A program made the translations under genes and the position numbers. DNA of 64,000 nucleotides from Anaerolineales bacterium (GTDB lineage Bacteria > Chloroflexota > Anaerolineae > Anaerolineales > DRMV01). The number at the start of each line of letters is the position of its first letter. The first letter of the stretch is position 1. The stretch lies in assembly GCA_026996855.1 (NCBI GenBank), contig JALWJZ010000004.1, forward strand, positions 4,334 through 68,333, in the 5' to 3' direction. Positions 27,366 to 57,547 of this stretch are shown here, one piece after another. The notes below the pieces were generated by a model that saw only the letters and a list, made by a program, of their open reading frames with translations, was not told the DNA's origin and did not search any database.

Positions 27366-27384
27366 CGCTCCCAGAAGGTGAGCC

Positions 27385-29952: not shown

Positions 29953-30010
29953 GCGGTAAGAGGCGGTAAGGCGATAAAGCGATAAGGCGATAAAGCGGTA
30001 AGGTGATTTG
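29953..30010 (+). repeat. short tandem octamer repeat, GCGRTAAR type
   Basis: Reads gcggtaag ag gcggtaag gcgataaa gcgataag gcgataaa gcggtaag gtgatttg. It begins 2 nt after the pepF stop, upstream of ilvE. Confidence 0.85.
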
Positions 30011-38231: not shown

Positions 38232-38319
38232 TGGTGCCGAAGGGGGGACTCGAACCCCCACGGGCGTAATGCCCACGGCGTCCTGAGCGCCGCGCGTCTG
38301 CCAATTCCGCCACTTCGGC
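38232..38319 (-). tRNA. tRNA-Leu (anticodon CAG), CCA encoded
   Basis: Minus strand reads GCCGAAGTGGCGGAATTGGCAGACGCGCGGCGCTCAGGACGCCGTGGGCATTACGCCCGTGGGGGTTCGAGTCCCCCTTCGGCACCA. Acceptor GCCGAAG/CTTCGGC, anticodon stem CGGCG/CGCCG with loop CTCAGGA, a long variable arm, and T arm GGGGG-TTCGAGT-CCCCC. Confidence 0.92.
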
Positions 38320-38371: not shown

Positions 38372-38425
38372 GCTTTTCTCACGGGGACACAGAGCGCACA
38401 GAGAAAAACTTGATCTTTACCTCTG
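38372..38425 (+). repeat. CACRGAG-heptamer repeat element, partial copy
   Basis: Reads cttttctCACGGGGaCACAGAGcgCACAGAGaaaaact... and matches the left arm of the elements at 42089 and 57391. The right arm is degenerate. Confidence 0.6.
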
Positions 38426-38482
38426 GGTGGGTATGTGCGGAGGGCGAGGGATGAAAAGGCGGGCCGAAAAGCCCGCCTTGCC

Positions 38483-40843
38483 TCATCCTCCGCCCAACAA
38501 CCGCCACACCCCGGCCACCGCAAGGGTCACCACCACGCCGATGCCCAGGGGCAACAGGGCGCCCACCGCGGCCCACTTCTTGCTGCCGGTTTCCTTCCAG
38601 ATGGTGAGGATGGTGGTCGAACATGGGTTGTGCATGACGGTGAACAACATGAGGTTGACCGCGGTCAACAAAGTCCACCCGGCCTTTTCCAGGAACAAAC
38701 TCCGCAACGCCTGGATGCTGTCCAGTTCCACCAGAGTGCCCGCACCGCTGTAAATCATGATCATGGAAGGCACCACGATTTCGTTGGCCGGAATGGCGAT
38801 GATGTACGCCAGCAAAATGACGCCGTCCAGGCCCATGAGCCGCCCCAGGGGGTCCAAGAACCCGGCGATGTGCTGGGCCAGGGGGGCGCCGGCCACATGG
38901 ATGTTCCCCAAAAGCCAGATGACGCCCCCCGCGGGCGCGGCCATGACCACGGCCCGCTGGAGCACCATCAGGGTGCGTTCGATGAAGGAGGTGTACAGGA
39001 TGCGCTTGACGTCGGGACGGCGATAGGGAGGCAGTTCCAGGGTAAAAGCGCTGGGTTCCCCCCGCAGCAGGGTGCGGGAAAGCAGCCAGGAACTGACGAA
39101 GGTCATGACGATGCCCACCAGCACCGCAAAAAGCACCGAGCCCGCGGCAATGAACGCAGCCATCCCTGCGGGAAAGGCGGAAGCCACGAACACCGTGCCC
39201 AACATGATGAGGGTGGGCCAGCGCCCGTTGCAGGGCACGAAGTTGTTGGTCAAAATGGCGATGAGCCGCTCCCGGGGCGATTCGATGATGCGGGTGGACA
39301 CCACCGCGGCCGCGTTGCAGCCAAAACCCATGGCCATGGTCAGGGCCTGTTTGCCGTGCGCGCCCACCCGCTTGAAGAGCCAGTCCAGGTTGAAGGCCAC
39401 CCGGGGCAGGTAGCCCAGGTCTTCCAGGATGGTGAACAGGGGGAAGAAAATGGCCATGGGCGGGAACATCACGCTGACCACCCAGGCCAGGCCCCGGTAC
39501 ACGCCCTTCCACAAGAAACCCGTAAGCCACCAGGGCAGGCCCAGGGCCTCGAACAAGGCCACACCCCATTCTTCAATGGTGAACAGCACGGTGGCAATCA
39601 ACTCCGAAGGGTAGTTGGCCCCGACGATGGTGATCCAGAAAATCGTGGTCAGGCCCACCAGCATGATGAGCAGGCCCCAGAAGGGATGGGTCACGATGCG
39701 GTCGATGCGTTCCCCCCAATCCCGGGCCGGGGCCCCGCGTTCCCGCACCACCGCGGCTGCGATGCGGGCGGCTTCTTCGTAGATGCTCTGCACCAGTTGG
39801 TCCCGGAAGGTTTCCGAAAGGGTTTCCCGCAACGCCCGAGCCCGTTCCAGGATGGCTTCCCCTGGGGAAAAAACCTGGGCATCTGCCGCCCGGGATGCAC
39901 CGTTGGGCGGTGTCGTCCTCCTTTCCCCTTCCAAGGCCGACAACACCTGGGGCCCCATGCGAGGCTCCCGGGCCTGGGTTCCATCCAGCGCGCGGCGGAT
40001 GTGCTGGCTCAACGTCCCTGTGCGGATGGCTTCCTCCAAAGAGGGGTCGCCGTCCAGCAAACGCAGGGCCAACCACTCGGCGATGGGAGCCACTTCAGGA
40101 AAGGCTTCCCGAATCATGGGAGCCAGTTGGTCCACCGCGGCCTGCAGGGCCGGCTCCAGCGCGACCTTGCGGGGCCGGGGTCGCAAACGTCCGGTGGCGA
40201 TATCTTCCACCACCTGCATCAGATACCCGATGCCTTCGCCGGTGCGGGCCACGATGGGCACTACGGGCACCCCCAATTCCCGGGCCAGTTTTCGATGGTC
40301 CACATGAATGCCCTTGCGTCGGGCCTCGTCCACCAGGTTCAGGGCCACCACGACCCGTGGGGTCACCTGCAAAATTTGCAACACCAGGTTCAGGTTGCGT
40401 TCCAGCGCGGTGGCATCCACCACCACGATGACCACGTCGGGATTGGCGAAGAGGAGAAAGTCCCGGGCCACTTCCTCTTCCACCGAAGCGGTGAGGAGGG
40501 AATAAGTACCGGGCAGGTCCACCACTTTGTACACCCGACCGTTGAATTTGAACCGGCCTTCGGCCCGGGTCACCGTTTTGCCCGGCCAGTTGCCCACGTG
40601 CTGGCGCAATCCGGTCAGGCGGTTGAACAGGGTGCTTTTCCCCACGTTGGGGTTCCCGGCCAGGGCCACCAGTACGTCCCATTCCCCCGGCTGCACCCCC
40701 AACTGTTCCACGTACAGTGGGCAGGTGGCGCAGGCAGCGGTCGGCAGTCGGCGGCCAATCTGCGGTTGTGGGCTGAGGGCCGTCGGCCGTGGACGGTCCG
40801 TCGTGGTTTGGATGGTGTGCGGTTTACGTTCCGTCGTCGCCAT
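38483..40843 (-). CDS. feoB: ferrous iron transporter FeoB
   Basis: ORF 38483..41023; ATG at 40843 follows AGGAGGG. G domain [19 protein letters not shown] and NLVD, followed by the large polytopic FeoB membrane domain. Confidence 0.92.
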
Positions 40844-40853
40844 GGTTTCCCTC

Positions 40854-41930
40854 CTATGTTCCACTATCCGCTGTCTGCTGACGGTCGACTGCGGACTGCT
40901 GACCGCTGGCGGCCGTCGGCCGTTGGCTGTCCGCAGGTTCCACCCAGATGGCCGCTGCCTGCTCGCGACGCAACGCAATGGTGGTGCCCCGAATGCGGTA
41001 GGCCCGCGGGTCACCCCGGCCAAAGGCGCTTTCCATCACCGGCACCACCTCGGCCCCCGGTGTGAAGCCCAAATCCAGCAGGCGGCGACGCAACAGGCCC
41101 CGCAAGCGGGGGGAAAGGGCCACTACCCGTACCTTTTGCCCAAGGGGCACTTCGGCCAGGGTCCACCGCGGTTCGGGCGCGGGTTCGGCCCGGGACGGCG
41201 CCTCCACCACGTGGATGTTCCCGGCCACGATGGGGGCCAGCCACAACTCCCGCGCTTCGTCCAGTAAACGCAGATGCACACCCTGGGGCGTGGTTTCCAG
41301 CACTTCCACCGTGCTCCCGGGGAGCAAACCCTCGGCCAGGATTTGCTCGAAGACGCTCAACGGTTCGTCTTCCACATGCACGATGCGGGCAGGCTTGCCC
41401 GGAGGCCATTCGTTTAGGGGCGTCCCGGGCGCCTGGGGCGTTTCTTCCCCGTGGGGAATGGGGTCGCCGTGGGGGTCGTGTTGAGGGTGGCCCAGGGTGG
41501 CGGACAGCCGGCGCACGTCCTGAGGCGAAAGGCGATGCTCCATGCGGTCGGCTAGTGCGTGAATCCGCTCCAGGGAGAGGTCGGTGTAGTCCCGCAAGTA
41601 GCGCTCCCAGAGGCGATGCGCCCGCAAGATGTGCAGGGCCAGGGCACGACCTTCAGGGGTGAGTTCCAGGCGGTTTCCCCGCACCACCGCCAGGCCCTGC
41701 GCGGCCAGGTGACGAACCACCCGCATGGCCTGGGTCAAGGACAGCCCCAAACGGGCGGCCAGGGTTTCCGGGGTGCAGGCCGTTCCCCGTTCGCAGCAAT
41801 CCATGAGCACTTTGAGGGCGTCCTCCATCAAGACGCGACGCCGCAATCGGTAGGCATCCCACGCCCACCGGCCGATCCACCAGAGCAAAACGCCCAAGAA
41901 CAAACCCGCGAGCAGGGTCCATCCATTCAT
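40854..41930 (-). CDS. DtxR-family metal-dependent regulator with an N-terminal TM helix and two C-terminal FeoA/SH3-like domains
   Basis: TM helix WTLLAGLFLGVLLWWIGRWAW. DtxR core LTPEGRALALHILRAHRLWERYL..ADRMEHRL..GHPQHDPHGDPIP. Two FeoA-like modules (ARIVHVED...GSTVEVLE and VRVVALSP..LLDLGFTPGAEV). It ends 10 nt before feoB. Confidence 0.8.
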   Translation of the reverse strand: MNGWTLLAGLFLGVLLWWIGRWAWDAYRLRRRVLMEDALKVLMDCCERGTACTPETLAARLGLSLTQAMRVVRHLAAQGLAVVRGNRLELTPEGRALALHILRAHRLWERYLRDYTDLSLERIHALADRMEHRLSPQDVRRLSATLGHPQHDPHGDPIPHGEETPQAPGTPLNEWPPGKPARIVHVEDEPLSVFEQILAEGLLPGSTVEVLETTPQGVHLRLLDEARELWLAPIVAGNIHVVEAPSRAEPAPEPRWTLAEVPLGQKVRVVALSPRLRGLLRRRLLDLGFTPGAEVVPVMESAFGRGDPRAYRIRGTTIALRREQAAAIWVEPADSQRPTAASGQQSAVDRQQTADSGT

Positions 41931-42088
41931 CGTAAGCCCTTCCTAAGTGCACGCGCTTTTTGGAAAAGGTGTTCCCTTCTTTGCCGAGGGTTTTCGGCGG
42001 TCCCTCGGCCAGGCGGTTTTCGCGTATAGCACCCAATTTAGGTTACCCTAAATTTTCCCCCAAGGCAAGCGCAAATTTCGTTTTGGGT

Positions 42089-42330
42089 GCGTTTTTTCAA
42101 AATCCATCAAAAGCCATCGCATTTTCTCACGGAGACACAGAGAACACAGAGAAAATTCTGGCCTTCTCCAGCAAGTACTCCGTGCTCTCCGTGGCTCTGT
42201 GTGCGCATTTATTAGAACATGCAAAACGCCTGGCAACTTCTTTTCTCACACGGAGAAAAAATTTTGGTCTTCTCCGGTGGATGCTCCGCGCGCTCCGTGG
42301 CTCTGGGGGAGGATGTAGCAAAACGCCCGG
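42089..42330 (+). repeat. CACRGAG-heptamer repeat element: one full copy plus a degenerate tandem copy (MITE/REP-like)
   Basis: 42089-42233 reads gcgttttttcaaaatccatcaaaagccatcgcattttctCACGGAGaCACAGAGaaCACAGAGaaaattctggccttctccagcaagtaCTCCGTGctCTCCGTGgCTCTGTGtgcgcatttattagaacatgcaaaacgcctgg. 42240-42330 repeats the core in degenerate form. Confidence 0.85.
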
Positions 42331-42349
42331 GACGGGCCTTCTGGGGTTG

Positions 42350-44881
42350 CTATTCCTTTTCCCCGCCCCTGGGGGAGGCGCCCTGGTTGAAGAAGGCCGC
42401 GTAGCGTCGGCGCAATTCCTGCACGAAGGCGTCGCCCTTTTCCGGCAGCGCGGCCAGGTTGGTGTACACCTGCACGTACACCGTTTCCCCGTCCATCACC
42501 CGCAGGGGCATGTCCACCAGGAGGTCCCTGGGCAGGATGCCGTGGTCCTGCAGGGTCCAGATGGTGGTCACCCGGTCGCTCAGGTTGGGCCACTGGTCCT
42601 TGGACCAGCGATAGCGCTCCCGGCAGAACTGCCAGATGTCTTCGGGCAGGAAGCGATGCCGGTGCTGGCGGAATTCCCCCCAGATTTGGGCGAACTCGGT
42701 GCGGGGGAAGAGGAGCCGCAGCATGGCCTGTTGCACGATTTCGGCCGGCCGACCGGTTTCCACGTCCACCCAGTTCACGTAGTAATTGTTGATGAAGGTG
42801 AAGATGCCGAAGTGGGAATAGTACTCCACCGTGGTCGGCAGTTCTTCCAGACCCCGTTGATAGGCCCGGTTGTAGGCTTCCTCCATGAGCAGGTTGGGCT
42901 CTTCCAGGTGCTCTTCCTCCTCCACGCCCCAACCGCCTTTCTTCTTGAAGCCCGGGGGCAACACGGCAAAGTGGAGCAAATCGGGTTCGATGCGGTACTC
43001 CCGAGAGATCAGCCGACGGATGCGGTCGTACTCCACGTTGAACTTGCGCATGGCGCCGGTGGCGATGAGGTGCTCCAGCGCGTCGGCCAGGCCCCGCTGG
43101 CGGGCCTGGTCCAGGCCCCGCTCCAGGCCGCAGGTGTAGGTTTCCAGGCCTCGGGAAGCCAGCACCTTTTCCAGCAAGGCCCGGGTATCCTGCCGACGGA
43201 GGCCGCCGTTGGCCACGGCCCATTGAATCAGGGTAAGCAGGCCGCCAAAGAACACGATGGCCAGCAGCGCGTGGTACTTCATGATGACCAGCACGATGAG
43301 CATGGTGTAACTGGCCAGCATACCCCGCAGGCCGGCGAAGCGCAACGCCCGGGCCTGGGGTGAACCGGGTTCGATGCCCTTTTCCCGGAGCACCTCGTCC
43401 CGGGCCAGGAACACCGCGGTGCTGGTGATGACGAAGGCGCTGACGAAGCCGAAGGCGTAGTAGGCTTCCACCACGGTGACGTAGCGGATGATGGGAATGA
43501 AAATGGCGGAAATCAGCCAGATGGTCACGACGCCCAGGCGGTCGTCCAGGAAGGCCGCGGGCAGACGGCCCAATCGGGCGGCGTTGGCCGCCACCGCGGC
43601 GCCGCCCACGTACCCGCCGCCCTGGGCCAGCAGGAGGATGACGGCCAGGAGCAACCCGGCCACGGCCAGGAAGGCCACGCCCGGCGTCCCCATCAGCGCC
43701 TGGCCGATGAGGCGGGCCATGGCCACCGCGTAGGCGGTTTCCCGAATGTAGGTGTCCCGGTCCGGGGGTTCCTCCAGGCCACCAGGGCGCAAGCGGGCCA
43801 CGTGTTCCTCGTACAGTTCCTCCGCGGCCTGGATGTCCGCGGGGGTGACCTGAATCTGCTCGGCCTCCAGGCCCCGGCCCAGCCATTGCACAGCCATGAT
43901 TTCGTATTCGATGAGCAGGGTGCTGTAGCCCTCGGTGGCGGGGATGTTCCACTGGCGGGCGGTGTACAGTTGCATCACCCCGGTGCCGATGAGGAAAAGC
44001 GCGGCCAGGGTGAGCGCGGTGCGCACCACCATCCATTTGGGCCGGGCCGCGTGTTTGCCGCTGGCCGGGATGACCTCGTACCCCGAGAAGCCCAGCATGG
44101 CGCTGGACATGGAGCGGAAGAACAGGTAAAGCACCATGCCCGTGGCCAGCGTGCTCAGGTCCTGCCGAGCCCGTACCACGTGCTCGACGACGCCGGCCGC
44201 CTGCAGCCGGTGCACGATGCCCTCGGTGAGAAAGGCCCATTCGGGGTGCAGGCCCGCGGCCAGGGTGGTGACGCTCAGGGCCACCAGGGTGAAGATGGTG
44301 AACGCGCCGCCGCCCAGGAGGAACACGGGAACGGCCCGTTTCGGCCCCATGATTGCCAGCACGGCCATGATGAAGAAGGCGAAACTTTCGGCCAGGAACA
44401 GCCGATAGGGCGCGAGTTCGGGCAGCACCAGCATGAGCACGTCGGCCGCGGAAATGGCGCTGATGATGATGGTCAGAATGGCGTCCAGGAAGAACAGGCT
44501 GGTGCCCACCCAGGAAAGCCAGCGCAGTTTGGGCGGGCCGATGGATTCCACCAGCGGGCCGCTGCCGCCCGCGTTGGGACGGAGGAAACTCCCGGCCTGG
44601 TACGCGGGCACGATGCCGAAGTACAGCATGAGGGAAAGCACCGCGAAGGCGGCGATGGCAATGCCGTGGTACCCCTGCGCGCCGTAAATGGCCAGCAGGG
44701 TCTGATAGGCCGCCACGCTGAACGCGTCCGCGGCGATTTCGAAAATCAGGGCCAGCACGCCCAGGCCGGTGCCGCCCAGGGCCAGCCCCTCGAACAGCAG
44801 CCGGGGGAGTTTTTTGCGGGCGGCCTTCCATTCGTCCTTGGGTACGTAGTTGCGGAACAGCCATCGGAACATGGTGGACAT
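42350..44881 (-). CDS. APC-superfamily-like permease (about 12 TM) fused to a roughly 290-aa soluble C-terminal domain of unknown function
   Basis: ATG at 44881 follows AGGAGGG. The N-terminal roughly 550 aa are polytopic, with a central soluble insert (EAEQIQVTPADIQAAEELYEEHVARL). The C-terminal part is Trp/Tyr/Arg-rich (FGIFTFINNYYVNWVDVETGRP, WQFCRERYRWSKDQWPN). The superfamily call is tentative. Confidence 0.6.
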   Translation of the reverse strand: MSTMFRWLFRNYVPKDEWKAARKKLPRLLFEGLALGGTGLGVLALIFEIAADAFSVAAYQTLLAIYGAQGYHGIAIAAFAVLSLMLYFGIVPAYQAGSFLRPNAGGSGPLVESIGPPKLRWLSWVGTSLFFLDAILTIIISAISAADVLMLVLPELAPYRLFLAESFAFFIMAVLAIMGPKRAVPVFLLGGGAFTIFTLVALSVTTLAAGLHPEWAFLTEGIVHRLQAAGVVEHVVRARQDLSTLATGMVLYLFFRSMSSAMLGFSGYEVIPASGKHAARPKWMVVRTALTLAALFLIGTGVMQLYTARQWNIPATEGYSTLLIEYEIMAVQWLGRGLEAEQIQVTPADIQAAEELYEEHVARLRPGGLEEPPDRDTYIRETAYAVAMARLIGQALMGTPGVAFLAVAGLLLAVILLLAQGGGYVGGAAVAANAARLGRLPAAFLDDRLGVVTIWLISAIFIPIIRYVTVVEAYYAFGFVSAFVITSTAVFLARDEVLREKGIEPGSPQARALRFAGLRGMLASYTMLIVLVIMKYHALLAIVFFGGLLTLIQWAVANGGLRRQDTRALLEKVLASRGLETYTCGLERGLDQARQRGLADALEHLIATGAMRKFNVEYDRIRRLISREYRIEPDLLHFAVLPPGFKKKGGWGVEEEEHLEEPNLLMEEAYNRAYQRGLEELPTTVEYYSHFGIFTFINNYYVNWVDVETGRPAEIVQQAMLRLLFPRTEFAQIWGEFRQHRHRFLPEDIWQFCRERYRWSKDQWPNLSDRVTTIWTLQDHGILPRDLLVDMPLRVMDGETVYVQVYTNLAALPEKGDAFVQELRRRYAAFFNQGASPRGGEKE

Positions 44882-45092
44882 CCCTCCTGTGGCGAAGAAA
44901 ACTCAAGCCGTGCGGCCGAGGACCTTTTCGTGGATTTCTCGGGCTGCGACGGAGGCCGAACCGCCGCGTCACAAACACCCCGTCGCGAACCTCGAACCCC
45001 GGGCCGGACGGTGCCGAAGGTGTGCCCTGGAGCCGCGGTTTTGCACGGGAGATGCCAAAACGCCGCGCCGAAAACTCCCGCGAAAAGGCGTT

Positions 45093-46256: not shown

Positions 46257-46294
46257 GGAACACCTACTCCTTTTGGTTGGGGATGGGCGGAGAA

Positions 46295-47035: not shown

Positions 47036-47037
47036 GG

Positions 47038-48156: not shown

Positions 48157-48233
48157 GGGCGGCCTCAGAAGGTGGGTTCCATGGGTGCGTCTCCAGGCAT
48201 GGTACCATGCCGTTGGGGGAAGACCTTGGCGCA

Positions 48234-48935: not shown

Positions 48936-48960
48936 GACCTGCCTTCCTTCAATTCGTTCC

Positions 48961-48995
48961 GCTCATCCGCCCATCCGCTCATTCGCCCATTCGCC
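48961..48995 (-). repeat. short tandem octamer repeat, GCGRATGR type on the gene strand
   Basis: Plus strand reads gctcatcc gcccatcc gctcattc gcccattc gcc; minus strand reads gcgaatgg gcgaatga gcggatgg gcggatga. It starts immediately after the WD40 gene stop (48996), upstream of the zinc-ribbon gene. Confidence 0.85.
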
Positions 48996-51065
48996 TTATG
49001 GCAACAATTGGGCCATCTCCCACACCAGCACGCTGCCGTCGTCCAGCACGGTAAGGGCCTTGGTCTGATCCGGGGTCAGGTCGATGTACCGGATGGCCTG
49101 GCCGAAAGTATCGGGGAAGGCGTGGAAGGCGCCCGTATTGGGGTCGAGCACGCCCCAGCCCTGGCCCGTAAGGAGCACCCGGTCGTCCTGCAGAAAGCGG
49201 GCTTCCCGGGCCACGATGGGGCTGGGTAGGGTTTTCTCGGGCTGCGGTCCCTGGCGCCAGAAGAGCACGTGGGCCTCGGTCAGGCCCACCAGGGTCTGGC
49301 CCGCGGCGTCGTAATCCAATGCGCGAATGGGTCGGCCGTTGCCCTGCCAGGTCTGGAAGAAGGATTCGTCCTGCGGGTTCCAGAAAACCACGGTGCTTTC
49401 ATCGGTGCTGATGGCGATGTGCGCCCCCTGGGGATGCATGGCCATGCCGTGGAGCAGGGCCAGTTCCGGTGGGGTGTACACCCGGGTGGTGTGTTTTTCC
49501 ATGTCCCACACATACAGGTTGGTCCAGCCCACGCCGACCAGGTAGGTCAAATCCGGGGCAAAGTCGAAGTCTTCAATGGGGAAGAGGCCGGGACCGTAGA
49601 ACTTGTAGTACACGGCCACCCAGCGTTGGGTGTCCCATATCACCGCACGGCCGGTCGCGTCCAGCGAAGCCAGGTACGTGCCATCCGGGGAGAAGCGAAG
49701 CCCGGTGATGGCATCGGTGTGGAGTTTCAGGGTGTTGACCACGGTTTGGGTGTCGGGGTCCCAGAGCAAGATGTCGCCGACGTCGGTGCCGATGGCCACC
49801 AGGTCACCTTGGGGGGAAAGGGCCGCGGCCTGCACGGGACGTCCGAAGGTGTCGTCACTGTATTCCGGGGCGCGCCAACTCAAATTGTACACCGTCAGCA
49901 CACCCCCTTCGCCCACCACCAGGGTGCGCACGTCGCCGTTCCGAATGTCCACCCGGTGGATGGCGCCTTTCCCGGCCACGGCTTCGGCCCGCTGGCCCAG
50001 CACACCGGTGTTGGGGTCCCAAAGCAGGAGGTCGCCATTTTCCGCGCCGCCCACCAGCAGGTCGCCCAAGAAGGTGGCTTCCAGTTGGGTTATGGGAAAT
50101 CCCGCGGTGAACAGGGTCACCTCTTTTTTCCCGGTCACCAGGTCCCAGGCGTACAGGATTTTCTCCGCGCCGGAGGAGACCACCCGGGCTTTGGGGAAAG
50201 CCACGAAGGTCACGGCCAGCACCGCGCCCGTATGGGCTTCCAGGCGATGCAAGGGTTGGGCGGGGTTTTGCAGGTCCCACACCATCAGCAGGCCGGTTTC
50301 GTACCCCACGGCCAGGAAGCGGCCCGAAGGTGAAAAGGCCAGCGCGGTGACTTTGGTTTCCACGGTTTGGGGCAGGGTGGAAATCTGGCGTTGGGCATCC
50401 ACCAGAAGCACGCGACCGTCTTCCAGCCCTACGGCCAGGGTGGCCGTTTGCGGGGCGGCATCCAACCCCGTGGGCCGCGCCGTGGTTTCCCCAAGGGGAA
50501 GGGTTTCGGCGGCTGCTTCTTGTTCCAGGTTCCAGAAGACCAGGGTCGGAGCGTCGCCCAGGCCCACCAGAGTTTGGTCGTTCAAAAAGGCCAGGCGGGT
50601 AACGGGGAGGGGCGTTGAGAACATGGTCTGAAGGCGGTGCTGCATGTCGTACAGGGAGACCCCCAGGCTGGTGACCACGGCATACCGGGGTTGGGTCGGT
50701 GCCCAGACGGCGTCCAGGAGCCGACCTTTCCCGTAGCGGGCGACGGCCCCTTTGGGAAGGGGGCCGGCTTCGGTGAACACGATGTGGGGCGTGGGGCTGG
50801 GCAAAGGCGTGGGCGTCGCGGGTAAAGGCGTGGGGCTGGGGATGGGGGTCGCCGTGGGCGGCTCCAAGGTCGGCGATGGTGCAAGGGTCGGGGTCTGCGG
50901 TGCAGGGGATACCGTCGGTGCAGGCGTGGCGGACGTGCACCCCATCGCGCCGATGAGCAGGGCAAACAAGGTCAACAAAACGGCCACTGAGCGGTGCATG
51001 ACGGACATCTCCTTGAGGCTTGGTTGGGGTTTCGGAGAAGGGGGTTCTCCAATGTTTTGGGTCAC
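48996..51065 (-). CDS. secreted/lipoprotein-type beta-propeller (WD40/PQQ-like repeat) protein with PT-rich linker
   Basis: Signal and possible lipobox AVLLTLFALLIGAMGC. Long linker TPAPTVSPAPQTPTLAPSPTLEPPTATPIPSPTPLP. Repeated motifs of the type G.V.LWD....... (LLWDPNTG, ILLWDPDTQ, VIWDTQRW, LMVWDLQNP). The start could be an internal Met (MSVMHRS). Confidence 0.75.
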   Translation of the reverse strand: MTQNIGEPPSPKPQPSLKEMSVMHRSVAVLLTLFALLIGAMGCTSATPAPTVSPAPQTPTLAPSPTLEPPTATPIPSPTPLPATPTPLPSPTPHIVFTEAGPLPKGAVARYGKGRLLDAVWAPTQPRYAVVTSLGVSLYDMQHRLQTMFSTPLPVTRLAFLNDQTLVGLGDAPTLVFWNLEQEAAAETLPLGETTARPTGLDAAPQTATLAVGLEDGRVLLVDAQRQISTLPQTVETKVTALAFSPSGRFLAVGYETGLLMVWDLQNPAQPLHRLEAHTGAVLAVTFVAFPKARVVSSGAEKILYAWDLVTGKKEVTLFTAGFPITQLEATFLGDLLVGGAENGDLLLWDPNTGVLGQRAEAVAGKGAIHRVDIRNGDVRTLVVGEGGVLTVYNLSWRAPEYSDDTFGRPVQAAALSPQGDLVAIGTDVGDILLWDPDTQTVVNTLKLHTDAITGLRFSPDGTYLASLDATGRAVIWDTQRWVAVYYKFYGPGLFPIEDFDFAPDLTYLVGVGWTNLYVWDMEKHTTRVYTPPELALLHGMAMHPQGAHIAISTDESTVVFWNPQDESFFQTWQGNGRPIRALDYDAAGQTLVGLTEAHVLFWRQGPQPEKTLPSPIVAREARFLQDDRVLLTGQGWGVLDPNTGAFHAFPDTFGQAIRYIDLTPDQTKALTVLDDGSVLVWEMAQLLP

Positions 51066-51083
51066 GTGCGGGTTTCTCGTCCT

Positions 51084-51368
51084 CTATTCTGCAACCAAAT
51101 CGGTGAGGTCTTTCTCACGCAGGATGCTGTATTTCCAGCGGTTGTAAACCGGAATGACGTAAGGGAGCAGGCGCAAGGTGTAATACGGGGGCAAAACGGG
51201 CAGGCCAATCATATCACCAAAGACGATGAGCATGAACAGTTGCTCCAGTTGGCCCCGTTCCTTGCGCAGGGCGAGTTCGAAATCGTACAGCAACATACCG
51301 TACAGGAAGCCCCGGAGCCATGCCAGGGCGCGTTTCCAGCGGGGCTGTTTTGACGTGGACCGGCTCAT
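51084..51368 (-). CDS. hypothetical small protein (94 aa)
   Basis: ORF 51084..51368, with one hydrophobic stretch (LFMLIVFGDMIGLPVLPPYY). No family recognised. Confidence 0.5.
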   Translation of the reverse strand: MSRSTSKQPRWKRALAWLRGFLYGMLLYDFELALRKERGQLEQLFMLIVFGDMIGLPVLPPYYTLRLLPYVIPVYNRWKYSILREKDLTDLVAE

Positions 51369-51430
51369 GGACTACACTCTTTCTCAAGCAGCGGCTTTTG
51401 GGTTGGCCACCCTTGGCTACGGAGGCAACG

Positions 51431-52069
51431 ATGTTCTCCGACCCGATATGGTGGATTGCTTTGCTGAGCGGCATCCTGGCCCTGGGTTTTCTGGGCGGTT
51501 TGATGGTCAATCGCCGACTTGGACGCCAATTATACCGCACTTTGCGCCAGGCTTTGGAGGCCTACGGCACCGTGGCCCAGGCTCGCTGGCTGGGCGGTGC
51601 AACCAGCGGGGTGTACCTGTCGCTTCACGAGGCCCGGCCTCCGTTGCGGCGCCTGGAAGCCGTGGTGCTGTTGGAGCCTCGGGAATTCCTGCCGGTGTGG
51701 CTGGTGGCCCGGTGGGTGCGAGGCCAGCGGGATGCCCTCATCTTGCGGGTGGTTTTCCGTCGGACGCCGCATACGGAATGGGAATGGCGGACCCAGGGCC
51801 GATTGGGATTGCGGGGCTTTTCTCCGCCCGGCCCGGACGAAGGTTTCGAGTCGGTTACGGCGCCGGGTTTTCGGGGTTGGGTGCGCCCCCGACAGGAGCC
51901 GGAAGCGGTGACTTCCTGGCATGAGTTCCTGGGAAAGTATGGAGGTCGGTTGTTGGCCCTTTCTTTGCGGAAACGCAAGCCGCACTTGATTCTGGCCGTG
52001 AAGGTGCGGGGCCTGGATGTGGCTACGTTTCTGGAGGACCTGCTGGTAGCGGTGGAACCCTGGTTGTAA
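51431..52069 (+). CDS. hypothetical membrane-anchored protein
   Basis: ORF 51320..52069; ATG at 51431 follows GGAGG. N-terminal TM helix IWWIALLSGILALGFLGGLMV. The remainder is soluble and Arg-rich. Confidence 0.5.
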   Translation: MFSDPIWWIALLSGILALGFLGGLMVNRRLGRQLYRTLRQALEAYGTVAQARWLGGATSGVYLSLHEARPPLRRLEAVVLLEPREFLPVWLVARWVRGQRDALILRVVFRRTPHTEWEWRTQGRLGLRGFSPPGPDEGFESVTAPGFRGWVRPRQEPEAVTSWHEFLGKYGGRLLALSLRKRKPHLILAVKVRGLDVATFLEDLLVAVEPWL

Positions 52070-52075
52070 ACGGCC

Positions 52076-53344
52076 ATGACTTCGTCCCCTGCAACGGCTT
52101 CCAGGCAAAACCCCCCCTCGTTTTCCAGGGCTTTCTGGCGTTTCTGGGCGGGGCACACCCTGGCCCTGTTCGGCGACGTGCTCTTCAGCGCGGGGATGAT
52201 GTGGTTCGTGTATCGAACCACGGGTTCGGCGCTGGCCACCTCCGGCGTGGCGCTGATGGAGACCGGGGCGCGGGTGTTGGGGAGCCTGCTGGCGGGGCCC
52301 CTGGCCGACCGACGGGTGCGCTCCCGCTGGATGGCGCAAATTCACGGTTTCAAAATGGCTCTGGTGCTGGCCGTGGCCCTGGCCCTTGCCCGTGGCGGGC
52401 TGACCCCCTGGCTGGTTTATGCGGTGGCCTTTGCTTTGAATTTGTTCAACGCTTTTTACGAACCCGTTTACGGTGCCCTGGTGCCGGATTTGGTCGCCAC
52501 CGCGGTGCTCACCCGGGCCAATGCCTTCGTTCAGGTAAGCCGTACCCTGGCGTATGGTGTGAGTTGGGGGTTGAGCGGGCTTTCTTTGGAAGCCCTGGGA
52601 CCCATGCCCGTGGCCTGGGCCAACGTGCTGGTCTTCGGCCTGGCCATGACCTTGTTCCTTTCGTTGCCTCGAGGGAGCCCGGTGCTGGGTAGCAGAAAGG
52701 GGACCTCGCTTACCCCCGCGGTTTTCTGGCGGGATGTGCGCGAAGGCCTGGCCTTGTACCGGCAGAAGAAGGTGCTGCAGGGTTTGCTGGTCGTTTCCTT
52801 CCCTGGGTGGCTCACGGTCGGCTTGTGGGGGCCTTTGCTGTTGGTGTACTTGAATCGCGTTTTGGGGGTAGGACCGGCGGGTTGGGGATGGAATCAGGCG
52901 GTGTTCTTCCTTTCGGGGCTGGTCGGCTCGGTGCTGGCGGCCTCGGTTCTGGGCGTTCTTTCCTGGCCCGAAGGCCGATGGGTGGCGGGGGTTGCGTGGT
53001 TTCATGGGATGCTAACCCTGGCTTTTGCCCTGGCCCCTTCGTATTGGTGGGCTTTGGTTACGGTGGCTCTGGCTGGCATCACCGACCCCTTTCTGCAGGC
53101 GGCCCGCATGGCTTTGCTGCAACACGCAGTCTCCGAGCGGCTTCGGGGCCGGGTGCTGGCCGTGTGGCAGGCCCTCATGTATCTGACGTTGATTGGGTCC
53201 TACACGGCGTTGGGTCTCTTGGGCGAGGCGGTGCCTTTACGAGGTCTGTACGCGAGTAGCGGCGTGTTCGTCATGGGTACGGTCCTGATTGCGGCTTTGG
53301 GGTTTGGCTTGGCACGGGTTCGGGTGCAGGGGGAGAGGACGTGA
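52076..53344 (+). CDS. MFS transporter
   Basis: About 12 TM helices. MFS-type loop LAGPLADRRVRSRWM between TM2 and TM3. Confidence 0.85.
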   Translation: MTSSPATASRQNPPSFSRAFWRFWAGHTLALFGDVLFSAGMMWFVYRTTGSALATSGVALMETGARVLGSLLAGPLADRRVRSRWMAQIHGFKMALVLAVALALARGGLTPWLVYAVAFALNLFNAFYEPVYGALVPDLVATAVLTRANAFVQVSRTLAYGVSWGLSGLSLEALGPMPVAWANVLVFGLAMTLFLSLPRGSPVLGSRKGTSLTPAVFWRDVREGLALYRQKKVLQGLLVVSFPGWLTVGLWGPLLLVYLNRVLGVGPAGWGWNQAVFFLSGLVGSVLAASVLGVLSWPEGRWVAGVAWFHGMLTLAFALAPSYWWALVTVALAGITDPFLQAARMALLQHAVSERLRGRVLAVWQALMYLTLIGSYTALGLLGEAVPLRGLYASSGVFVMGTVLIAALGFGLARVRVQGERT

Positions 53345-53451
53345 CGGCGGCGTGCAAGATGACATCGTATTTCCCACGTTCCGGGCCGGGGGATTGTCCT
53401 GTTTTCCCCAGACCTATTCCTTGGCGGAGGGGCCTTTGGAGCAGATCGCAT

Positions 53452-53523
53452 TTCCTCTGTGTTCTCTATGCCTCCATGAGGACATGCGATGGCTTTTGCT
53501 TCTATTGGATTTTGAAAAACACG
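53452..53523 (-). repeat. CACRGAG-heptamer repeat element, partial copy in inverted orientation
   Basis: The reverse complement reads gtgtttttcaaaatccaatagaagcaaaagccatcgcatgtcctCATGGAGgCATAGAGaaCACAGAGgaaatg. It matches the left half of the 42089 and 57391 copies. A further fragment (cacaaaggacacagaaattc) lies at about 53595-53615. Confidence 0.7.
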
Positions 53524-53622
53524 TGTGGCTGCGTCAGGCTTGAATATGGAAAGGCGCATGGGCAATGGCCCTCTAACAACGCGTTTGCCTGGTATTGAGC
53601 CGTACACAAAGGACACAGAAAT

Positions 53623-54126
53623 TCAGGGCTCGGCGTCCAGGGCTTCGATCAGGTGGCGGTAACGGCGCACGAACCAATGGGCGAGCAAGGGGCGATATTC
53701 CCGCTGGATTGCTTTGGGCAGGGCGAAGAAATCGCCGAAAATGACCCCGTGACAGCGCTCGGCGCCGCAGTTGCAGGGGATGGGGGTTCCTCCGGTGAGG
53801 TTGATGTTGTAGTCGAAGGTGATTTCTTCCCCCGGGGCGATGTCGCGACGGGCCACGATATAAATGTCGGAGCCCTCGTGCCATTCGTACGCGTTCGGAT
53901 CACAACTGTGATTCACATAGCGGTCCGGGAACCCCCACAGGAGCACCTTTCCATCGGGGAAACTGCAGTGCTCGATGCGTTCGCCGAGGTCTTCGCGCAG
54001 GGGTGCGTCCTCGGTGATTTCCCGCACGATGTTCACCCGGCGAATGCGTTCCCCGGCCCGAAAAGGGCGCGTGGCAAAGAGCCCCAGCCCCTCAATCGGC
54101 GACGGCTTGACCTCTACGCCATTCAT
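53623..54126 (-). CDS. SET domain protein (putative protein-lysine methyltransferase)
   Basis: GLGLFATRPFRAGERI, RYVNHSCDPNA, GEEITFDY, and post-SET-like Cys residues CNCGAERC. Confidence 0.85.
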   Translation of the reverse strand: MNGVEVKPSPIEGLGLFATRPFRAGERIRRVNIVREITEDAPLREDLGERIEHCSFPDGKVLLWGFPDRYVNHSCDPNAYEWHEGSDIYIVARRDIAPGEEITFDYNINLTGGTPIPCNCGAERCHGVIFGDFFALPKAIQREYRPLLAHWFVRRYRHLIEALDAEP

Positions 54127-54189
54127 GAGAACTTCCTTCCAGAAAATCGGCTATCCTTGCAGGAAACGCGTCTACGATCGGCAACCTAC

Positions 54190-54310
54190 CGCTAACGGCA
54201 CCAGTGTGAGGTCGCCGTCCAATGGCCTTTGCTGGCGCATAACCTTGGCCCGAATTTCCCACCCACGTTCGCGCGCGGCGCAGCCGCGTCCGCTGCACGC
54301 GGGGTTAGCC
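54190..54310 (-). other. attC-like structured repeat, copy A (the more degenerate copy)
   Basis: The minus strand starts with GGCTAAC and ends with GTTAGCG, so the termini GCTAAC/GTTAGC are exact reverse complements. It is a direct repeat of 56300-56425 (shared block ttggcc.gaaat..ccc.cc.acgttcgcgcg.ggcgc.gccgcgtccgctg.acgc). It begins 2 nt after the stop of the 489-aa gene. Confidence 0.5.
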
Positions 54311-54312
54311 CG

Positions 54313-55782
54313 CTAATTTTTCTCCTTATCCTCTTTAGAAAGCCTACCCTTTAACAGGGGCTCAAATAAATCGGCCAAATTCATTCCCAATTGTTCCTCT
54401 GCAAGTCCTTCAGGGATTTTAACCCCTTCAATAAATTTTTCTCCCACTTCTCGTGTCAATGCTACACCTACAAAGCCCAGGCGTTTGCTCCTAGTCTGCT
54501 CTGATTTTAGAGGCGGGAGAGCGATGAGTGTACTTGCGCCTGTCATCGCCGCCCCTATAGCTTGGTGTAAACGCTGACGAAGAAGGGCACGGACTGCCAT
54601 TCGCGGAAAACGAGCTATGCCCGTTGAGGCGCGCTTGACAGGATCTGAGGCACTATCCACCGTTCGTAAGAATTCATCAATGAAATATCGTGCACGTCGC
54701 CACATGTAAGAGCGGAAAGGAACATTTGTCAAGAAGATATCGGTGGATGCCGGGTCGAACCAAACCTCATCATAGGGGACACGCGTCTCTTCGCTCTGCA
54801 CTTTGTCCAGATACTCTCGATCCAGGTCTTCCAGCATCAACCCTGATGTCCAGCCATAATAACTTCCTTCCACAAGAAGAATGCGTTTGGGCTTTTGCTC
54901 TAAACCATGCAAAGCCTCCTCAAAAATCTCTCTCACGGACGCGATGACTTGCTCGTGACGCGCGTGAATATACTTTAACAACAGAGAGGCTTGCTCCCTC
55001 AAGTAAGGAATATCATTTGCCTTGTCCTTGAATACCTCAATGAAACCTTTCTGCCGACTCAACCCTATAATATCCTCCGGGGTGCTGTCCAGACGCACAT
55101 TGTCTATAAAACTGATTCCTGTTCCTGCATCTTTGAGTAACAAATTCCACGGATTGGGAAAGGTTCTAAAATTTCTAAGCAACCCCGGGGCATGGGTCTC
55201 AAACCATTCTTCGCAACTGGGACAGAAACAGGTCAGTTCAAGTCTACCGTTTTTTGCTCCCATTGGGAAAAGATTTACCACATCTAACACAACTCCCACC
55301 AATTTCCCTGGCGTATCTTTCGTAGCCATTCTGGCTATATCTATGCCAGTGCCAAGGATGGCCCCCACAATAGCACGGCTCATAGGGTTGCCAACGCATA
55401 CGGCATGGGAACTGTCGCCGGAAATGTCAACAATATGTAATGGTGCAGCGCGGATGAATTCTAGGGTGGGGTTAATAAGCAGGTAAATGTCGAGCCCTTT
55501 CTGCGCAAATGCATGTACTACATCTGAGAATTCCTTCAATCTATCTGACACTCGAGCATAGGGCGATATTGGCTCATCTAATCCACTCACCTTAAATACT
55601 AATCCTTCAGGATGGGAGACGGGTAAAACCACACCTTGAGGCTCTACTCCCCACATCTCTTTAAACTGTTTTATCACCTCATCGGGCTTCACGTACCGTA
55701 AGAATCCAAGGTGAGGGATATCTACCACATTGCTACCAGAATTCCCAGCCAGTATCTTTTGAATTTTGAATTGCCGAGTCAT
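54313..55782 (-). CDS. hypothetical protein, 489 aa, with a CxCxxC knuckle; function unknown (cassette gene 2)
   Basis: Clean ORF in AT-rich DNA. Its ATG overlaps the stop of the upstream gene (ATGA at 55779-55782). CFCPSC is at aa 185-190 (nt 55213-55230). An alternating strand/helix-like pattern (DIYLLINP, GVVLDVVNLFPMG, ILLVEGSYYGW) suggests an alpha/beta barrel. No family recognised with confidence. Confidence 0.8.
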   Translation of the reverse strand: MTRQFKIQKILAGNSGSNVVDIPHLGFLRYVKPDEVIKQFKEMWGVEPQGVVLPVSHPEGLVFKVSGLDEPISPYARVSDRLKEFSDVVHAFAQKGLDIYLLINPTLEFIRAAPLHIVDISGDSSHAVCVGNPMSRAIVGAILGTGIDIARMATKDTPGKLVGVVLDVVNLFPMGAKNGRLELTCFCPSCEEWFETHAPGLLRNFRTFPNPWNLLLKDAGTGISFIDNVRLDSTPEDIIGLSRQKGFIEVFKDKANDIPYLREQASLLLKYIHARHEQVIASVREIFEEALHGLEQKPKRILLVEGSYYGWTSGLMLEDLDREYLDKVQSEETRVPYDEVWFDPASTDIFLTNVPFRSYMWRRARYFIDEFLRTVDSASDPVKRASTGIARFPRMAVRALLRQRLHQAIGAAMTGASTLIALPPLKSEQTRSKRLGFVGVALTREVGEKFIEGVKIPEGLAEEQLGMNLADLFEPLLKGRLSKEDKEKN

Positions 55783-56276
55783 CTGCTGCCTCCCGATATA
55801 AATTTTTGTTTGGCGGTCCTGGTAAGCTCATACCTACCTGGTGATGCTTCTATTAGATACCCTTTTGATATCAGAGTGTCTAATACAAATTCGCCCAAAG
55901 CGGCATTGTTTTGCAGTGCTGGCGAGATACTCTGGATCAATTCTTCTCTTGTAGCTCTTTCGCTTTTACTGCTCCGCAGATAATGGTGGATATTTTGTAT
56001 AGCTCGAGTAACGAATTTCTTGGTGGTTTCGCTTTCCTCTAGATAATGGCCCGTAATCTTCTCAACAGCTTTCTCTACGGCTTCCTTTGTTTCTTTTGAA
56101 CTTCTAGATATTTCGGATTTAATTTTTTCGGTTTCCGCTCTCAACTTCTCAGCCTCTGCCCGCAGTTTTTCAACTTCAGCTGAACTTTTTTTTCTTGTAA
56201 ACAAATGGTTTGCAATAGCAACAAGGAGACCACCGATTACAGAAGTGATTAGCGCAGCTACTATTTCTTCAGACAT
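55779..56276 (-). CDS. hypothetical membrane-anchored coiled-coil protein with a winged-helix-like C-terminus, 165 aa (cassette gene 1)
   Basis: ORF 55779..56459; ATG at 56276 follows GGAGG. TM helix IVAALITSVIGGLLVAIANHLF. Repeated EKLRAEAEKLRAETEKIKSEI coiled coil. The C-terminal LISKGYLIEASPGRYELT resembles a wHTH wing. Confidence 0.75.
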   Translation of the reverse strand: MSEEIVAALITSVIGGLLVAIANHLFTRKKSSAEVEKLRAEAEKLRAETEKIKSEISRSSKETKEAVEKAVEKITGHYLEESETTKKFVTRAIQNIHHYLRSSKSERATREELIQSISPALQNNAALGEFVLDTLISKGYLIEASPGRYELTRTAKQKFISGGSR

Positions 56277-56299
56277 TTTACCTCCAAAGACCTCCAGCG

Positions 56300-56425
56300 G
56301 CCTAACGCCAGCGTCAGCGGCGCGGCTCCGTCGTCCAACGGTCTTTATAGCCGCATGATTTTTGGCCGAAATCCCGCCGACGTTCGCGCGTGGCGCGGCC
56401 GCGTCCGCTGAACGCTCGGTTGGGG
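56300..56425 (-). other. attC-like structured repeat, copy B (well-formed imperfect hairpin)
   Basis: Minus strand: CCCCAAC cg AGCGT t CAGCGG a CGCGGC [71 nt] GCCGCG CCGCTG ACGCT ggc GTTAGGC. The 3' box matches GTTRRRY perfectly. Stems pair 56301-06/56419-24, 56310-14/56412-16, 56315-20/56405-10 and 56321-26/56398-403. Unpaired bases A56411 and T56404 are both on one arm. Confidence 0.6.
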
Positions 56426-56455
56426 CGGGATGCCCTATAACCCTCAAAACACTGC

Positions 56456-56677
56456 TCACTCCTTTTCTCTGCCGCTATCCCTCTCTCGCTTTATCTCATC
56501 CACGATTTCCGCTAAACTCTTCTCGCCAAACAAGGCCTCGCGCTCTTCAGCGTACTCCCCAAACCCCGTAGTAAACTGCCGCAAAAAGCGCACAGCGTTT
56601 ACCACTCCTAATTCCCGATAAAGCGCCCAAAAGGCCTTGCGATTGACTTCGACTAACGGCTCAGCATACACGCTCAT
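56456..56677 (-). CDS. small protein co-transcribed with the PIN gene, putative antitoxin (73 aa)
   Basis: The ATG overlaps the PIN gene stop (ATGA at 56674-56677). Acidic C-terminus. No DNA-binding fold recognised; the call rests on context. Confidence 0.55.
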   Translation of the reverse strand: MSVYAEPLVEVNRKAFWALYRELGVVNAVRFLRQFTTGFGEYAEEREALFGEKSLAEIVDEIKRERDSGREKE

Positions 56678-57114
56678 CTTTCCAACTCCTCCGCCAATTC
56701 CACCGGCGTCACGACCTTTACCGCCAAATGCCCTAAACGCTTTGCTCTTTTCAGAAGTTTGTCATCGCTCGTGCAAAAATAATCCACCTTCCCTTTCTCT
56801 GCCAATGCCAAATGCAAAGCATCAAGGGGTTTGAAGCCCTCTTCCACCAAATGGTTTGCCCGTTCTTCTACCTCTTTCGTGATGACCAGGTGCTCTTTAG
56901 CCAACTCCAACACAGCCAGGGCATACTCCCGACGAACAGGGTGTGGATTGCGCCTCACCTCATAAACCAAGGCGTCTGATGAGACAATCTCCACTTGGCC
57001 ACGCTCACATAGCGCAAGGATGCCCAGAATCGCCTCGGCCTCAATGGCAATGCGCAAATGACTCGGCGTATCCAACGGCCTTTGAATCGCACCCACATCC
57101 AGATAGATCTTCAT
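56674..57114 (-). CDS. PIN domain ribonuclease (VapC-like toxin)
   Basis: The acidic quartet fits a PIN fold: D6 (IYLDVG), E in EAEAIL, D in PLDALHLALA, and D in FCTSDDKLL. Length is 146 aa. Confidence 0.8.
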   Translation of the reverse strand: MKIYLDVGAIQRPLDTPSHLRIAIEAEAILGILALCERGQVEIVSSDALVYEVRRNPHPVRREYALAVLELAKEHLVITKEVEERANHLVEEGFKPLDALHLALAEKGKVDYFCTSDDKLLKRAKRLGHLAVKVVTPVELAEELER

Positions 57115-57390
57115 GACTTCATTTTAGCATACCCTGGATGAAAGATCCCCCGCCCGCCTGACTATCAATTCTCCCGCTCTTTCGTCGCGAAACCGGCACA
57201 AACGCGGCGGATTTGTGTATACTATACCAAAATTTGCGCTTTATGCGGCGTGCATGCCAAAATCTTGCGGGTTTTGCGACGATTTTGTCGGATAATCCCG
57301 CGCTCGGGCGGTTTTCGCGACATCTTCTCTTTCGTACATCGCGCGCGACCACGCGCGCACGTTCCTTATCCGGTTTTCACGGGGGCACAC

Positions 57391-57547
57391 GCGTTTTTCA
57401 AAATCCAACAAAAGCGGCAAAACAAAAGCCATCGCATGTTCTCACGGAGGCACAGAGAACACTGAGAAAGTTTTGGCCTTTCCCAGCCATACTCCGTGTT
57501 CTCCGTGGCTCTGTGTGAGTATTTGTTCAAACATGAAAAACGCCTGG
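57391..57547 (+). repeat. CACRGAG-heptamer repeat element, full copy (MITE/REP-like)
   Basis: Reads gcgtttttcaaaatccaacaaaagcggcaaaacaaaagccatcgcatgttctCACGGAGgCACAGAGaaCACTGAGaaagttttggcctttcccagccataCTCCGTGttCTCCGTGgCTCTGTGtgagtatttgttcaaacatgaaaaacgcctgg. It is collinear with 42089-42233. Confidence 0.85.

Follow-up and report, generated by a model that had tools for sequence, protein, structure and literature searches.

A triple-heptamer hairpin repeat in an Anaerolineales contig belongs to a cross-phylum, phage-borne family whose arms also bracket GxxExxY (PDDEXK_3) genes

Copies of the 150-bp repeat in the window

The 64-kb window analysed here (the whole stretch of 64,000 nt, from contig JALWJZ010000004.1 of an Anaerolineales bacterium) contains a dispersed repeat of about 150 bp, in which two inverted arms, each made of three CACRGAG-type heptamers, enclose a short loop. 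The original prediction had recognised this repeat at four loci. It proved to be real: an nhmmer profile of c42 and c57, which are the full copies, was run over the window and resolved exactly five copies in the 64 kb, two of them at the 42-kb locus, with everything else at E≥1. The left-arm 29-mer CTCACGGAGNCACAGAGAACACAGAGAAA was found with up to three mismatches at 38378, 42126, 57441 and, on the minus strand, 53452 (0 expected, 100 shuffles), and the right-arm 24-mer at 42178, 42284 and 57492, against 0 expected. The four loci hold 16 of the 25 CACRGAG heptamers of the window.

Copy c42 is located at 42089-42236 on the plus strand (nhmmer E 1.4e-51). It comprises a left flank (42089-42125), a left arm (42128-42151; CACGGAG A CACAGAG AA CACAGAG), a loop (42152-42177), a right arm (42178-42201; CTCCGTG CT CTCCGTG G CTCTGTG) and a right flank (42202-42236). 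Beside it stands a degenerate tandem copy at 42248-42330 (plus strand; E 1.4e-10, model positions 55-159), whose left arm is the single unit CACGGAG at 42249 and whose right arm, CTCCGCG CG CTCCGTG G CTCTGGG at 42284-42307, is followed by the right flank. The second full copy, c57 (57391-57547, plus strand; E 3e-56), has an outer 10-bp inverted repeat, GCGTTTTTCA / TGAAAAACGC, with the left arm at 57443-57466 and the right arm at 57492-57515. The copy at 53.45 kb had been described as an inverted left half; c53 (53442-53520; E 1.5e-16, model positions 3-91) is indeed on the minus strand, but it is broken off within the loop and retains only the left flank and the left arm (53455-53478, minus-strand CATGGAGGCATAGAGAACACAGAG). 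The partial copy reported at 38.4 kb is present as c38 (38374-38421, plus strand; E 4.7e-07), with the correction that it is a decayed hairpin, consisting of a left arm (38380-38403; CACGGGGACACAGAGCGCACAGAG), a loop and right-arm remnants, without the outer flanks.

Both full copies fold into a long hairpin, as had been expected from their triple-heptamer arms: c57 at -57 kcal/mol (z -5.99) and c42 at -39 kcal/mol (z -2.1), with arm-to-arm gaps of 25 nt and 26 nt, respectively. The strings TENTEK and SVLSVALC, which had been attributed to spurious open reading frames (ORFs) generated by the repeat, can be read straight from 42136-42201. All copies are intergenic. Copy c38 lies between the feoB stop (38483, minus strand) and the 5' end of tRNA-Leu (38319, minus strand); this tRNA-Leu(CAG) gene (38232-38319, minus strand), whose proximity had been noted before, is outside the element at a distance of 55-60 nt. 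Copy c42 is placed between an 843-aa gene and a feoA/dtxR-like gene, c53 between the convergent genes for a major facilitator superfamily (MFS) protein (52076-53344, plus strand) and a SET protein (53623-54126, minus strand), and c57 between the stop codon of the pyruvate:ferredoxin oxidoreductase (PFOR) gene (57640, minus strand) and the start of an antitoxin/PIN pair (57352).

The outer left flank of the 150-bp unit reads GCGTTTTTCAAAATCC...CATCGCAT and the right flank ATTT..AACATG.AAAACGCCTGG. The 330 loci fetched in this work contained these flanks only where this very locus had been assembled a second time, and JGI metagenomes scanned with the exact pattern gave zero matches. The 150-bp unit is composed of two layers, in which genome-specific outer flanks surround a heptamer core that is widespread.

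The heptamer hairpin in bacteria and phages

The pattern CACRGAG-N-CACRGAG-NN-CACNGAG was searched for in one-genome-per-species GTDB contigs and in IMG/VR; fetched loci are labelled by L-numbers (L010 and so on). At least 120 loci were found in the GTDB contigs, from at least 13 phyla by record titles, and at least 120 in viral contigs of IMG/VR. The GTDB matches listed include Planctomycetota, Acidobacteriota, Verrucomicrobiota, Chloroflexota, Gemmatimonadota, Cyanobacteria (Nostoc, Lyngbya), Myxococcota (Sorangium), several classes of Pseudomonadota, Bacteroidota, Desulfobacterota, Spirochaetota, SAR324 and Calditrichota. By a rough estimate, a pattern of ~38 bits set against ~1.2e12 positions would give a handful of chance matches. 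The 240 listed loci contain 133 pairs in hairpin order (CAC..GAG arm, loop, CTC..GTG arm), and this inverted partner arm cannot be explained by chance. The loops of the 133 pairs are spread continuously from 2 to 140 nt. The heptamer core is thus a cross-phylum family carried by phages as well, which was absent from the original prediction.

The core consensus is CRCNGAG three times, with a 1-nt and then a 2-nt spacer, followed by a variable loop and the complement. Across 51 hairpins, pairing in the heptamer columns has almost no exceptions and the three spacer columns covary (A-T, G-C, C-G, T-A), so that the stem is a near-perfect palindrome of 24-30 bp. A profile of 388 distinct arms, built without the window, showed features beyond those imposed by the search pattern: the arms tend to be preceded by TTCAC (T.60, T.60, C.53, A.81, C.89), have purines as spacers and are rich in A at the inner end. 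Six window arms matched this profile at E 3e-08 to 2e-04, the two arms of c42 at 3e-08 and 6e-06. The c42 arm is identical to arms in L054, L070 and L110 at 24/24 positions, and at 21/21 to the arm of a GxxExxY cassette in L317. The window arms have purine spacers (A, AA / G, AA) and the prefix TTTCT or GTTCT instead of TTCAC, as does a minority of the family (e.g. L093, L013) in lacking TTCAC. The flanks TTCAC...GTGAA would read TTCACGTGAA if a cruciform were extruded, and these are the 10 bp at the centre of the consensus parS site TGTTTCACGTGAAACA; the next positions outward mismatch, so the resemblance is probably a coincidence.

Copies on the same contig have their loops and outer flanks in common (four copies in L155, five in L128, three in L131, and further cases in L184 and L242), and c42 and c57 are related to each other in the same way. 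Since such loops and flanks are arbitrary, their sharing within a genome speaks for duplication of existing copies over separate selection at each site. In each genome the core has acquired outer flanks and a loop peculiar to that genome, and this version is amplified; in the present genome it is the 150-bp unit. The loops often enclose other hairpins of 7-9-nt units, such as CACAGAT (L117), CACGAAA (L139) and TGCAAAT (L010), with GCAGAGT and ACAGGAT as further units (L040, L064). Complete hairpins of other units within CACRGAG loops indicate that such palindromes insert into one another and form a larger super-family with unit-built arms. At two orthologous phage intergenic sites, with flanks 71-95% identical, the heptamers were kept, the spacers differed and the loop was replaced outright; the loop would behave as an exchangeable slot. 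By PHROGs, the neighbours of the phage copies encode portal, tape-measure, tail, head-closure and minor-head proteins, often 0-20 nt away. What the window holds is five gene-less copies, in varying states of decay, of a palindromic DNA repeat from this cross-phylum and tailed-phage family. A 24-nt motif that occurs from Cyanobacteria to Planctomycetota and gut Bacteroides and in their phages must be either recognised by a conserved protein or carried about by an active horizontal vehicle, and either would be new biology.

GxxExxY genes between inverted arms

An all-against-all BLASTP comparison of the genes next to the hairpins showed no recurrence except for phage structural genes and GxxExxY. 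In L092 a small gene stands exactly between the arms and in L056 a small gene stands between two hairpins; both products belong to the GxxExxY family (TIGR04256, E 2e-41; Pfam PF13366, PDDEXK_3). In the first 120 listed loci, GxxExxY genes were flanked by tandem-unit arms in 5/5 cases, with unit variants such as CACGAAG at L038 and the GCAGCGAA type at L013. A loose arm pattern with variable spacing, tried for other cargo genes, was too permissive for use.

A sample of GxxExxY genes was taken independently of the repeat, as the best 80 metagenomic matches to a 5-sequence alignment (51-74% identity to L092). The upstream flank of each gene was locally aligned to the reverse complement of the downstream flank, and heptamer-unit inverted arms within 150 nt were scored. 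Such arms bracketed 52 of the 74 genes with adequate flanks (~70%), compared with 0/94 windows shifted by 800 nt. The TTCAC ends pointed outward in 45/52, the median gaps between arm and gene were 20 and 10 nt, and the median arm length was 33 nt. Arms numbered 87 in 25.7 kb beside the genes, 50 in 167 kb elsewhere and 1 in 193 kb of shuffled sequence, that is, 3.4 per kb near GxxExxY genes versus 0.3 per kb elsewhere. The units at the 52 bracketed genes were CACnGAG (25), CGCnGAG (21) and CACGAAG/CATGAAG or similar (6), and the units of a single element match, both inside an arm and between its two arms. The arms found in the window are of the same kind as the inverted repeats that tightly bracket most of the sampled GxxExxY genes. 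No earlier description of this association was found in literature searches on the heptamer strings, GxxExxY, PDDEXK_3 and intervening sequences, from which curated database notes and subscription articles were out of reach, and none of the papers searched contained the heptamer dimers.

Clean cassettes wedged between housekeeping genes were found in RefSeq genomes. In Bacteroides finegoldii the order is radA, TTCACCACAGAGgaCGCAGAGgaCACGGAG, the GxxExxY gene (protein WP_032839887), CTCTGTGacCTCTGTGtcCTCTGTGGTGAA and a gene for a FAD-dependent protein; Bernardetia has the same layout, and Gemmatirosa carries one hairpin on either side of the GxxExxY gene. No repeat or mobile-element annotation was present at these RefSeq examples. 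The two most distant copies, plasmid-borne in Treponema and Prevotella (37-38% identity), have a short inverted repeat or direct unit arrays only. In Sphingomonas parapaucimobilis (NZ_CP155749, 482837-483265; L328), GxxExxY lies between fabD and fabG, 3 nt from the fabG start, and appears to be a selfish insertion tolerated inside an essential fatty-acid synthesis operon. In L264, L274, L298, L056 and L329, alternating arms are densely arrayed around GxxExxY (arm', short spacer, arm, gene, arm', spacer, arm) and look like clusters in the style of bacterial interspersed mosaic elements (BIMEs) or like cassette arrays.

PDDEXK_3 is listed as being of unknown function, with "multiple transfers" (PMC3424549). 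The family is very large, a homology search giving at least 8000 candidates. GxxExxY was absent from the defence proteins listed by PADLOC. No relative in the PDB was found by sequence, and an AlphaFold model from a shallow alignment (pLDDT 69) gave nothing below E 0.2 with Foldseek. That most sampled members share one inverted-repeat architecture offers a testable substrate and role for this family.

Interpretation and the neighbouring island

We favour, at roughly even odds (about 0.5), the reading that the repeat is a DNA-level selfish element resembling repetitive extragenic palindromes (REPs), with a biology coupled to the GxxExxY protein. The spread or upkeep of the hairpins would probably be tied in trans to a GxxExxY-type nuclease, as REPs are to the REP-associated tyrosine transposase (RAYT). 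In one version, GxxExxY would act on hairpins that are extruded or single-stranded, recognising their triple heptamers and promoting their copying, as RAYT does for REP. In the other, the GxxExxY gene would be a parasite of the homing type: empty hairpins would be cut, and the gene would be copied into them through the 30-bp homology of the arms. Gene-less hairpins are far commoner, phage copies occur without the gene, and the coupling between protein and unit is weak, which makes us lean to the homing version. The window copies may sit where insertion is tolerated, in short spacers at gene ends, and any link to an island would be secondary, through homologous recombination between copies.

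Several points weigh against this coupling. No GxxExxY gene lies within the window. The metagenomic sample over-represents one subfamily, made up of relatives 51-74% identical to a single protein. Protein identity follows the heptamer class weakly (62.6 versus 60.0%, permutation p<0.0005), and GxxExxY proteins that are 73-82% identical can have CAC-type arms in one case and CGC-type arms in the other. Viral contigs contain few GxxExxY genes, with 4 loci, and 0 in the 120 listed viral loci that bear the hairpin, so phage copies persist without a phage-encoded nuclease. Gene-less loops contained no gene remnants (best E 0.026), hence the gene-less hairpins are not deletion derivatives, and no pair of empty and filled sites was found. 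The nuclease activity of GxxExxY is itself predicted, from its superfamily assignment.

The systems that work most similarly are the REP/REPIN-RAYT elements. They too are short intergenic palindromes with many copies per genome and no target duplication; the alternating-orientation clusters in L274 and L298 resemble BIMEs, and here as there a small nuclease-type gene is characteristically flanked by inverted repeats. REPs and REPINs are palindromes of 20-40 nt that carry a GTAG or CGTC tag on one side (PMC3733652). The CRCNGAG family has no such tag: its ends are TTCAC-CACAGAG and its arms are three tandem heptamers. Its partner is a PD-(D/E)XK-superfamily protein, whereas RAYT is an HUH Y1 enzyme. 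Without the tag, and with a PD-(D/E)XK-type gene between its arms where RAYT would be expected, it does not count as a member of REP/REPIN-RAYT. Furthermore, its sequence is common to phyla and phages, in contrast to the species-specific REPs, and its partner gene is multi-copy, unlike that of REPs.

More tentatively, and with clearly less confidence than in the favoured reading, the CRCNGAG hairpin and GxxExxY might together constitute an undescribed class of selfish cassettes, found across phyla and in phages, that would parallel REP-RAYT with an enzyme of another fold. In such a system the arms would serve as constant sites for docking or recognition and the loop would take up interchangeable cargo, from 2 nt up to a gene of 0.4 kb; copying or homing would be driven by the nuclease and would leave no target duplication. 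Integron attC sites and the "mobile regulatory cassettes" of the T4-type promoter early stem-loop (PeSL) are likewise conserved imperfect palindromes that bound exchangeable small genes, and the hairpin-gene-hairpin arrays of L056, L264 and L329 resemble them. The CRCNGAG arms differ from attC in lacking R/L boxes and a GTTRRRY core, and no integrase was found among 20 ORFs scanned in the window. They differ from both systems in that inverted arms stand on both sides of the cargo, compared with one site per cassette, and in having no promoter motif.

The main alternative, a doubtful one, is that the hairpin is a functional cis-element for host and phage. As RNA it could terminate transcription in both directions, stabilise 3' ends or be a site for RNase III; as DNA it could offer an array of sites to a conserved binding protein. 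GxxExxY genes would then only land in it or be expressed inside it. In favour of this reading, the three identical units of each arm suggest that a protein makes repeated contacts, heptamers are retained at the orthologous phage sites while loops change, hairpins are placed between the structural genes of phages, and GxxExxY genes are few compared with hairpins, roughly 2 in 115. Many copies lie 5-20 nt past a stop codon; as many lie 5-40 nt from the next start. Hairpins were depleted in divergent spacers of the genome loci (11/91), but this depletion was gone in a larger de-duplicated set (18/89). In 56 hairpins between co-oriented genes, sense-strand mismatches were G-U in 61 and A-C in 75 cases, and the missing excess of G-U gives no sign of selection on an RNA helix. 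No U-tract adjoins the stem in the arm profile, in which GTGAA follows the stem, and no terminator listed by a terminator scan matches the full stem. A promoter scan of the element found no sigma-70-like site, and an Rfam search gave no family, only sub-threshold look-alikes of microRNA precursors. The arbitrary loops and flanks common to copies of one genome, together with the decayed and broken copies in the window, also speak for copying and against a conserved cis-element.

It is very improbable that the repeat is a classical miniature inverted-repeat transposable element (MITE), that is, an insertion sequence of the DDE-transposase kind reduced by deletion to a non-autonomous form, which moves by cut-and-paste and duplicates its target site. 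The repeat does have terminal inverted repeats (the outer GCGTTTTTCA / TGAAAAACGC and the inner arms), a length of ~150 bp, intergenic positions and multiple copies, and it had been called MITE/REP-like. As a dispersed intergenic hairpin repeat that description stands; the MITE part is largely refuted, as the target-duplication test failed and no transposase partner was seen. No target-site duplication was seen by inspection at the c42 and c57 junctions, and in 113 hairpins direct repeats at the palindrome ends were no commoner than in shuffled sequence (9 of 2 nt versus 9.2 expected; 2 of 3 nt versus 2.8). Pairing outside the heptamers fades gradually and leaves no fixed tip, so that conservation decays outward instead of peaking at the tips. 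The claim that a transposase is missing was borne out by Pfam scans of 20 ORFs over 36.5-61.3 kb. Among the listed loci, moreover, no arm pair of 1-6 kb encloses a transposase; the enclosed genes are ordinary, and the only recurrent one, GxxExxY, is not a known transposase. The Correia/NEMIS elements of Neisseria and MITEs in general share with the repeat a unit of 100-160 bp, inverted-repeat ends and a long hairpin fold. Correia elements are also intergenic and hug gene ends, and no transposase is known for them, yet they duplicate TA and are confined to one genus, whereas the present family shows no duplication, fuzzy ends and a cross-phylum range.

Intervening sequences of 23S rRNA, with which GxxExxY-type and four-helix-bundle ORFs are connected, were considered as a further candidate. 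This sample does not support them, as no conserved 23S motif was present in any of 326 loci or in the window.

Copies c53 and c57 are mutually inverted, show 88% complementarity across 50 nt and flank the segment 53.5-57.4 kb. They had been described as bracketing exactly an island with the SET gene, an attC-bounded cassette and a PIN module. The inverted copies on either side were confirmed, but the edge is not exact. Low GC (0.40-0.53) starts at ~54.2 kb, the SET gene (53623-54126) has a GC of ~0.60, close to the genome value of 0.64, and c53 lies ~700 nt outside the low-GC DNA, while c57 abuts the island edge. The low-GC mosaic itself (54200-57352, minus strand) is outside the element. It contains a two-gene module (489 aa and 226 aa; GC 0.40-0.50) with no Pfam family above threshold, which is bounded by direct repeats of ~110 bp at 54200-54313 and 56315-56425 (83% identical), and then a 73-aa ORF, the PIN gene (56674-57114) and a 77-aa ORF (GC 0.51-0.54). 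Each ~110-bp repeat holds an imperfect GC-rich palindrome, and the module looks like a cassette with boundary sites of its own. These boundaries had been called attC, but no GTTRRRY core was seen in them. The 226-aa ORF has a marginal match to PbeC (E 3.5e-04). The PIN gene and the 77-aa ORF upstream of it (56674-57352), at the right edge of the low-GC DNA, are a likely toxin-antitoxin pair, and the PIN gene gave a weak PADLOC match to PDC-M11A (E 7e-09).

It is unlikely that c53 and c57 mediated the acquisition or inversion of the SET/low-GC/PIN segment by homologous recombination. Their inverted arrangement and complementarity, the break of c53 in its loop and the foreign composition of 54.2-57.4 kb would fit such an event. 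On the other side, it is a single case among five copies within 20 kb, the left copy stands apart from the low-GC DNA, SET is near-native in GC, and the two-gene module has its own direct repeats. The arms of c53 and c57 face the island with their CAC ends, a polarity opposite to that of the arms around GxxExxY genes. Relatives with a PFOR 91, 87 and 81% identical showed no synteny on either side and no CACRGAG arms, and exact-protein look-ups returned only the other assembly of the locus, which is identical. In the relative with the 87% identical PFOR (L244, 8900-9030), the canonical terminator of the PFOR gene is followed closely by a hairpin of different tandem heptamers, with arms of GAGTGGT/CAGTGGT five times and then ACGACCA four times, pairing at 5/7; this hairpin shares the class of architecture and the type of location.

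An independently assembled Logan contig of SRR13622958 with the MFS locus (L122, 2814 nt) stops ~150 nt beyond c53, which fits a repeat that breaks short-read assemblies. An annotation model would help with hairpins of this type, which make spurious ORFs, break assemblies and wedge into operons, e.g. fabD/fabG.

Plain heptamer and octamer arrays are present in the window as well, and its source genome seems rich in short-unit intergenic arrays. Cyanobacterial short tandemly repeated repetitive (STRR) heptamer arrays are comparable. The nearest published parallel that we found is that of the TAACTGA heptamer direct repeats, which are intergenic in Beggiatoaceae, Cyanobacteria and Bacteroidetes (PMC4679880). 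As in the CRCNGAG family, a specific heptamer is repeated (2-6 times) between genes of distant phyla, with horizontal spread suspected and no mechanism known. Unlike the CRCNGAG units, which form two inverted arms with fixed 1-nt/2-nt spacing and have a linked gene family, the TAACTGA units are direct repeats, mostly just upstream of start codons, with no linked gene (PMC4679880). At 27289-27369 eleven tandem heptamers (GCTATCT / GCCATCC) are located, the last of them 17 nt before an ATG, an array that resembles these start-codon-proximal repeats (PMC4679880). Intergenic tandem arrays of 8-nt units are found at 29955-30007 (GCGGTAAG/GCGATAAA, six times) and at 48958-48995 (TCCGCTCA/TCCGCCCA, five times).

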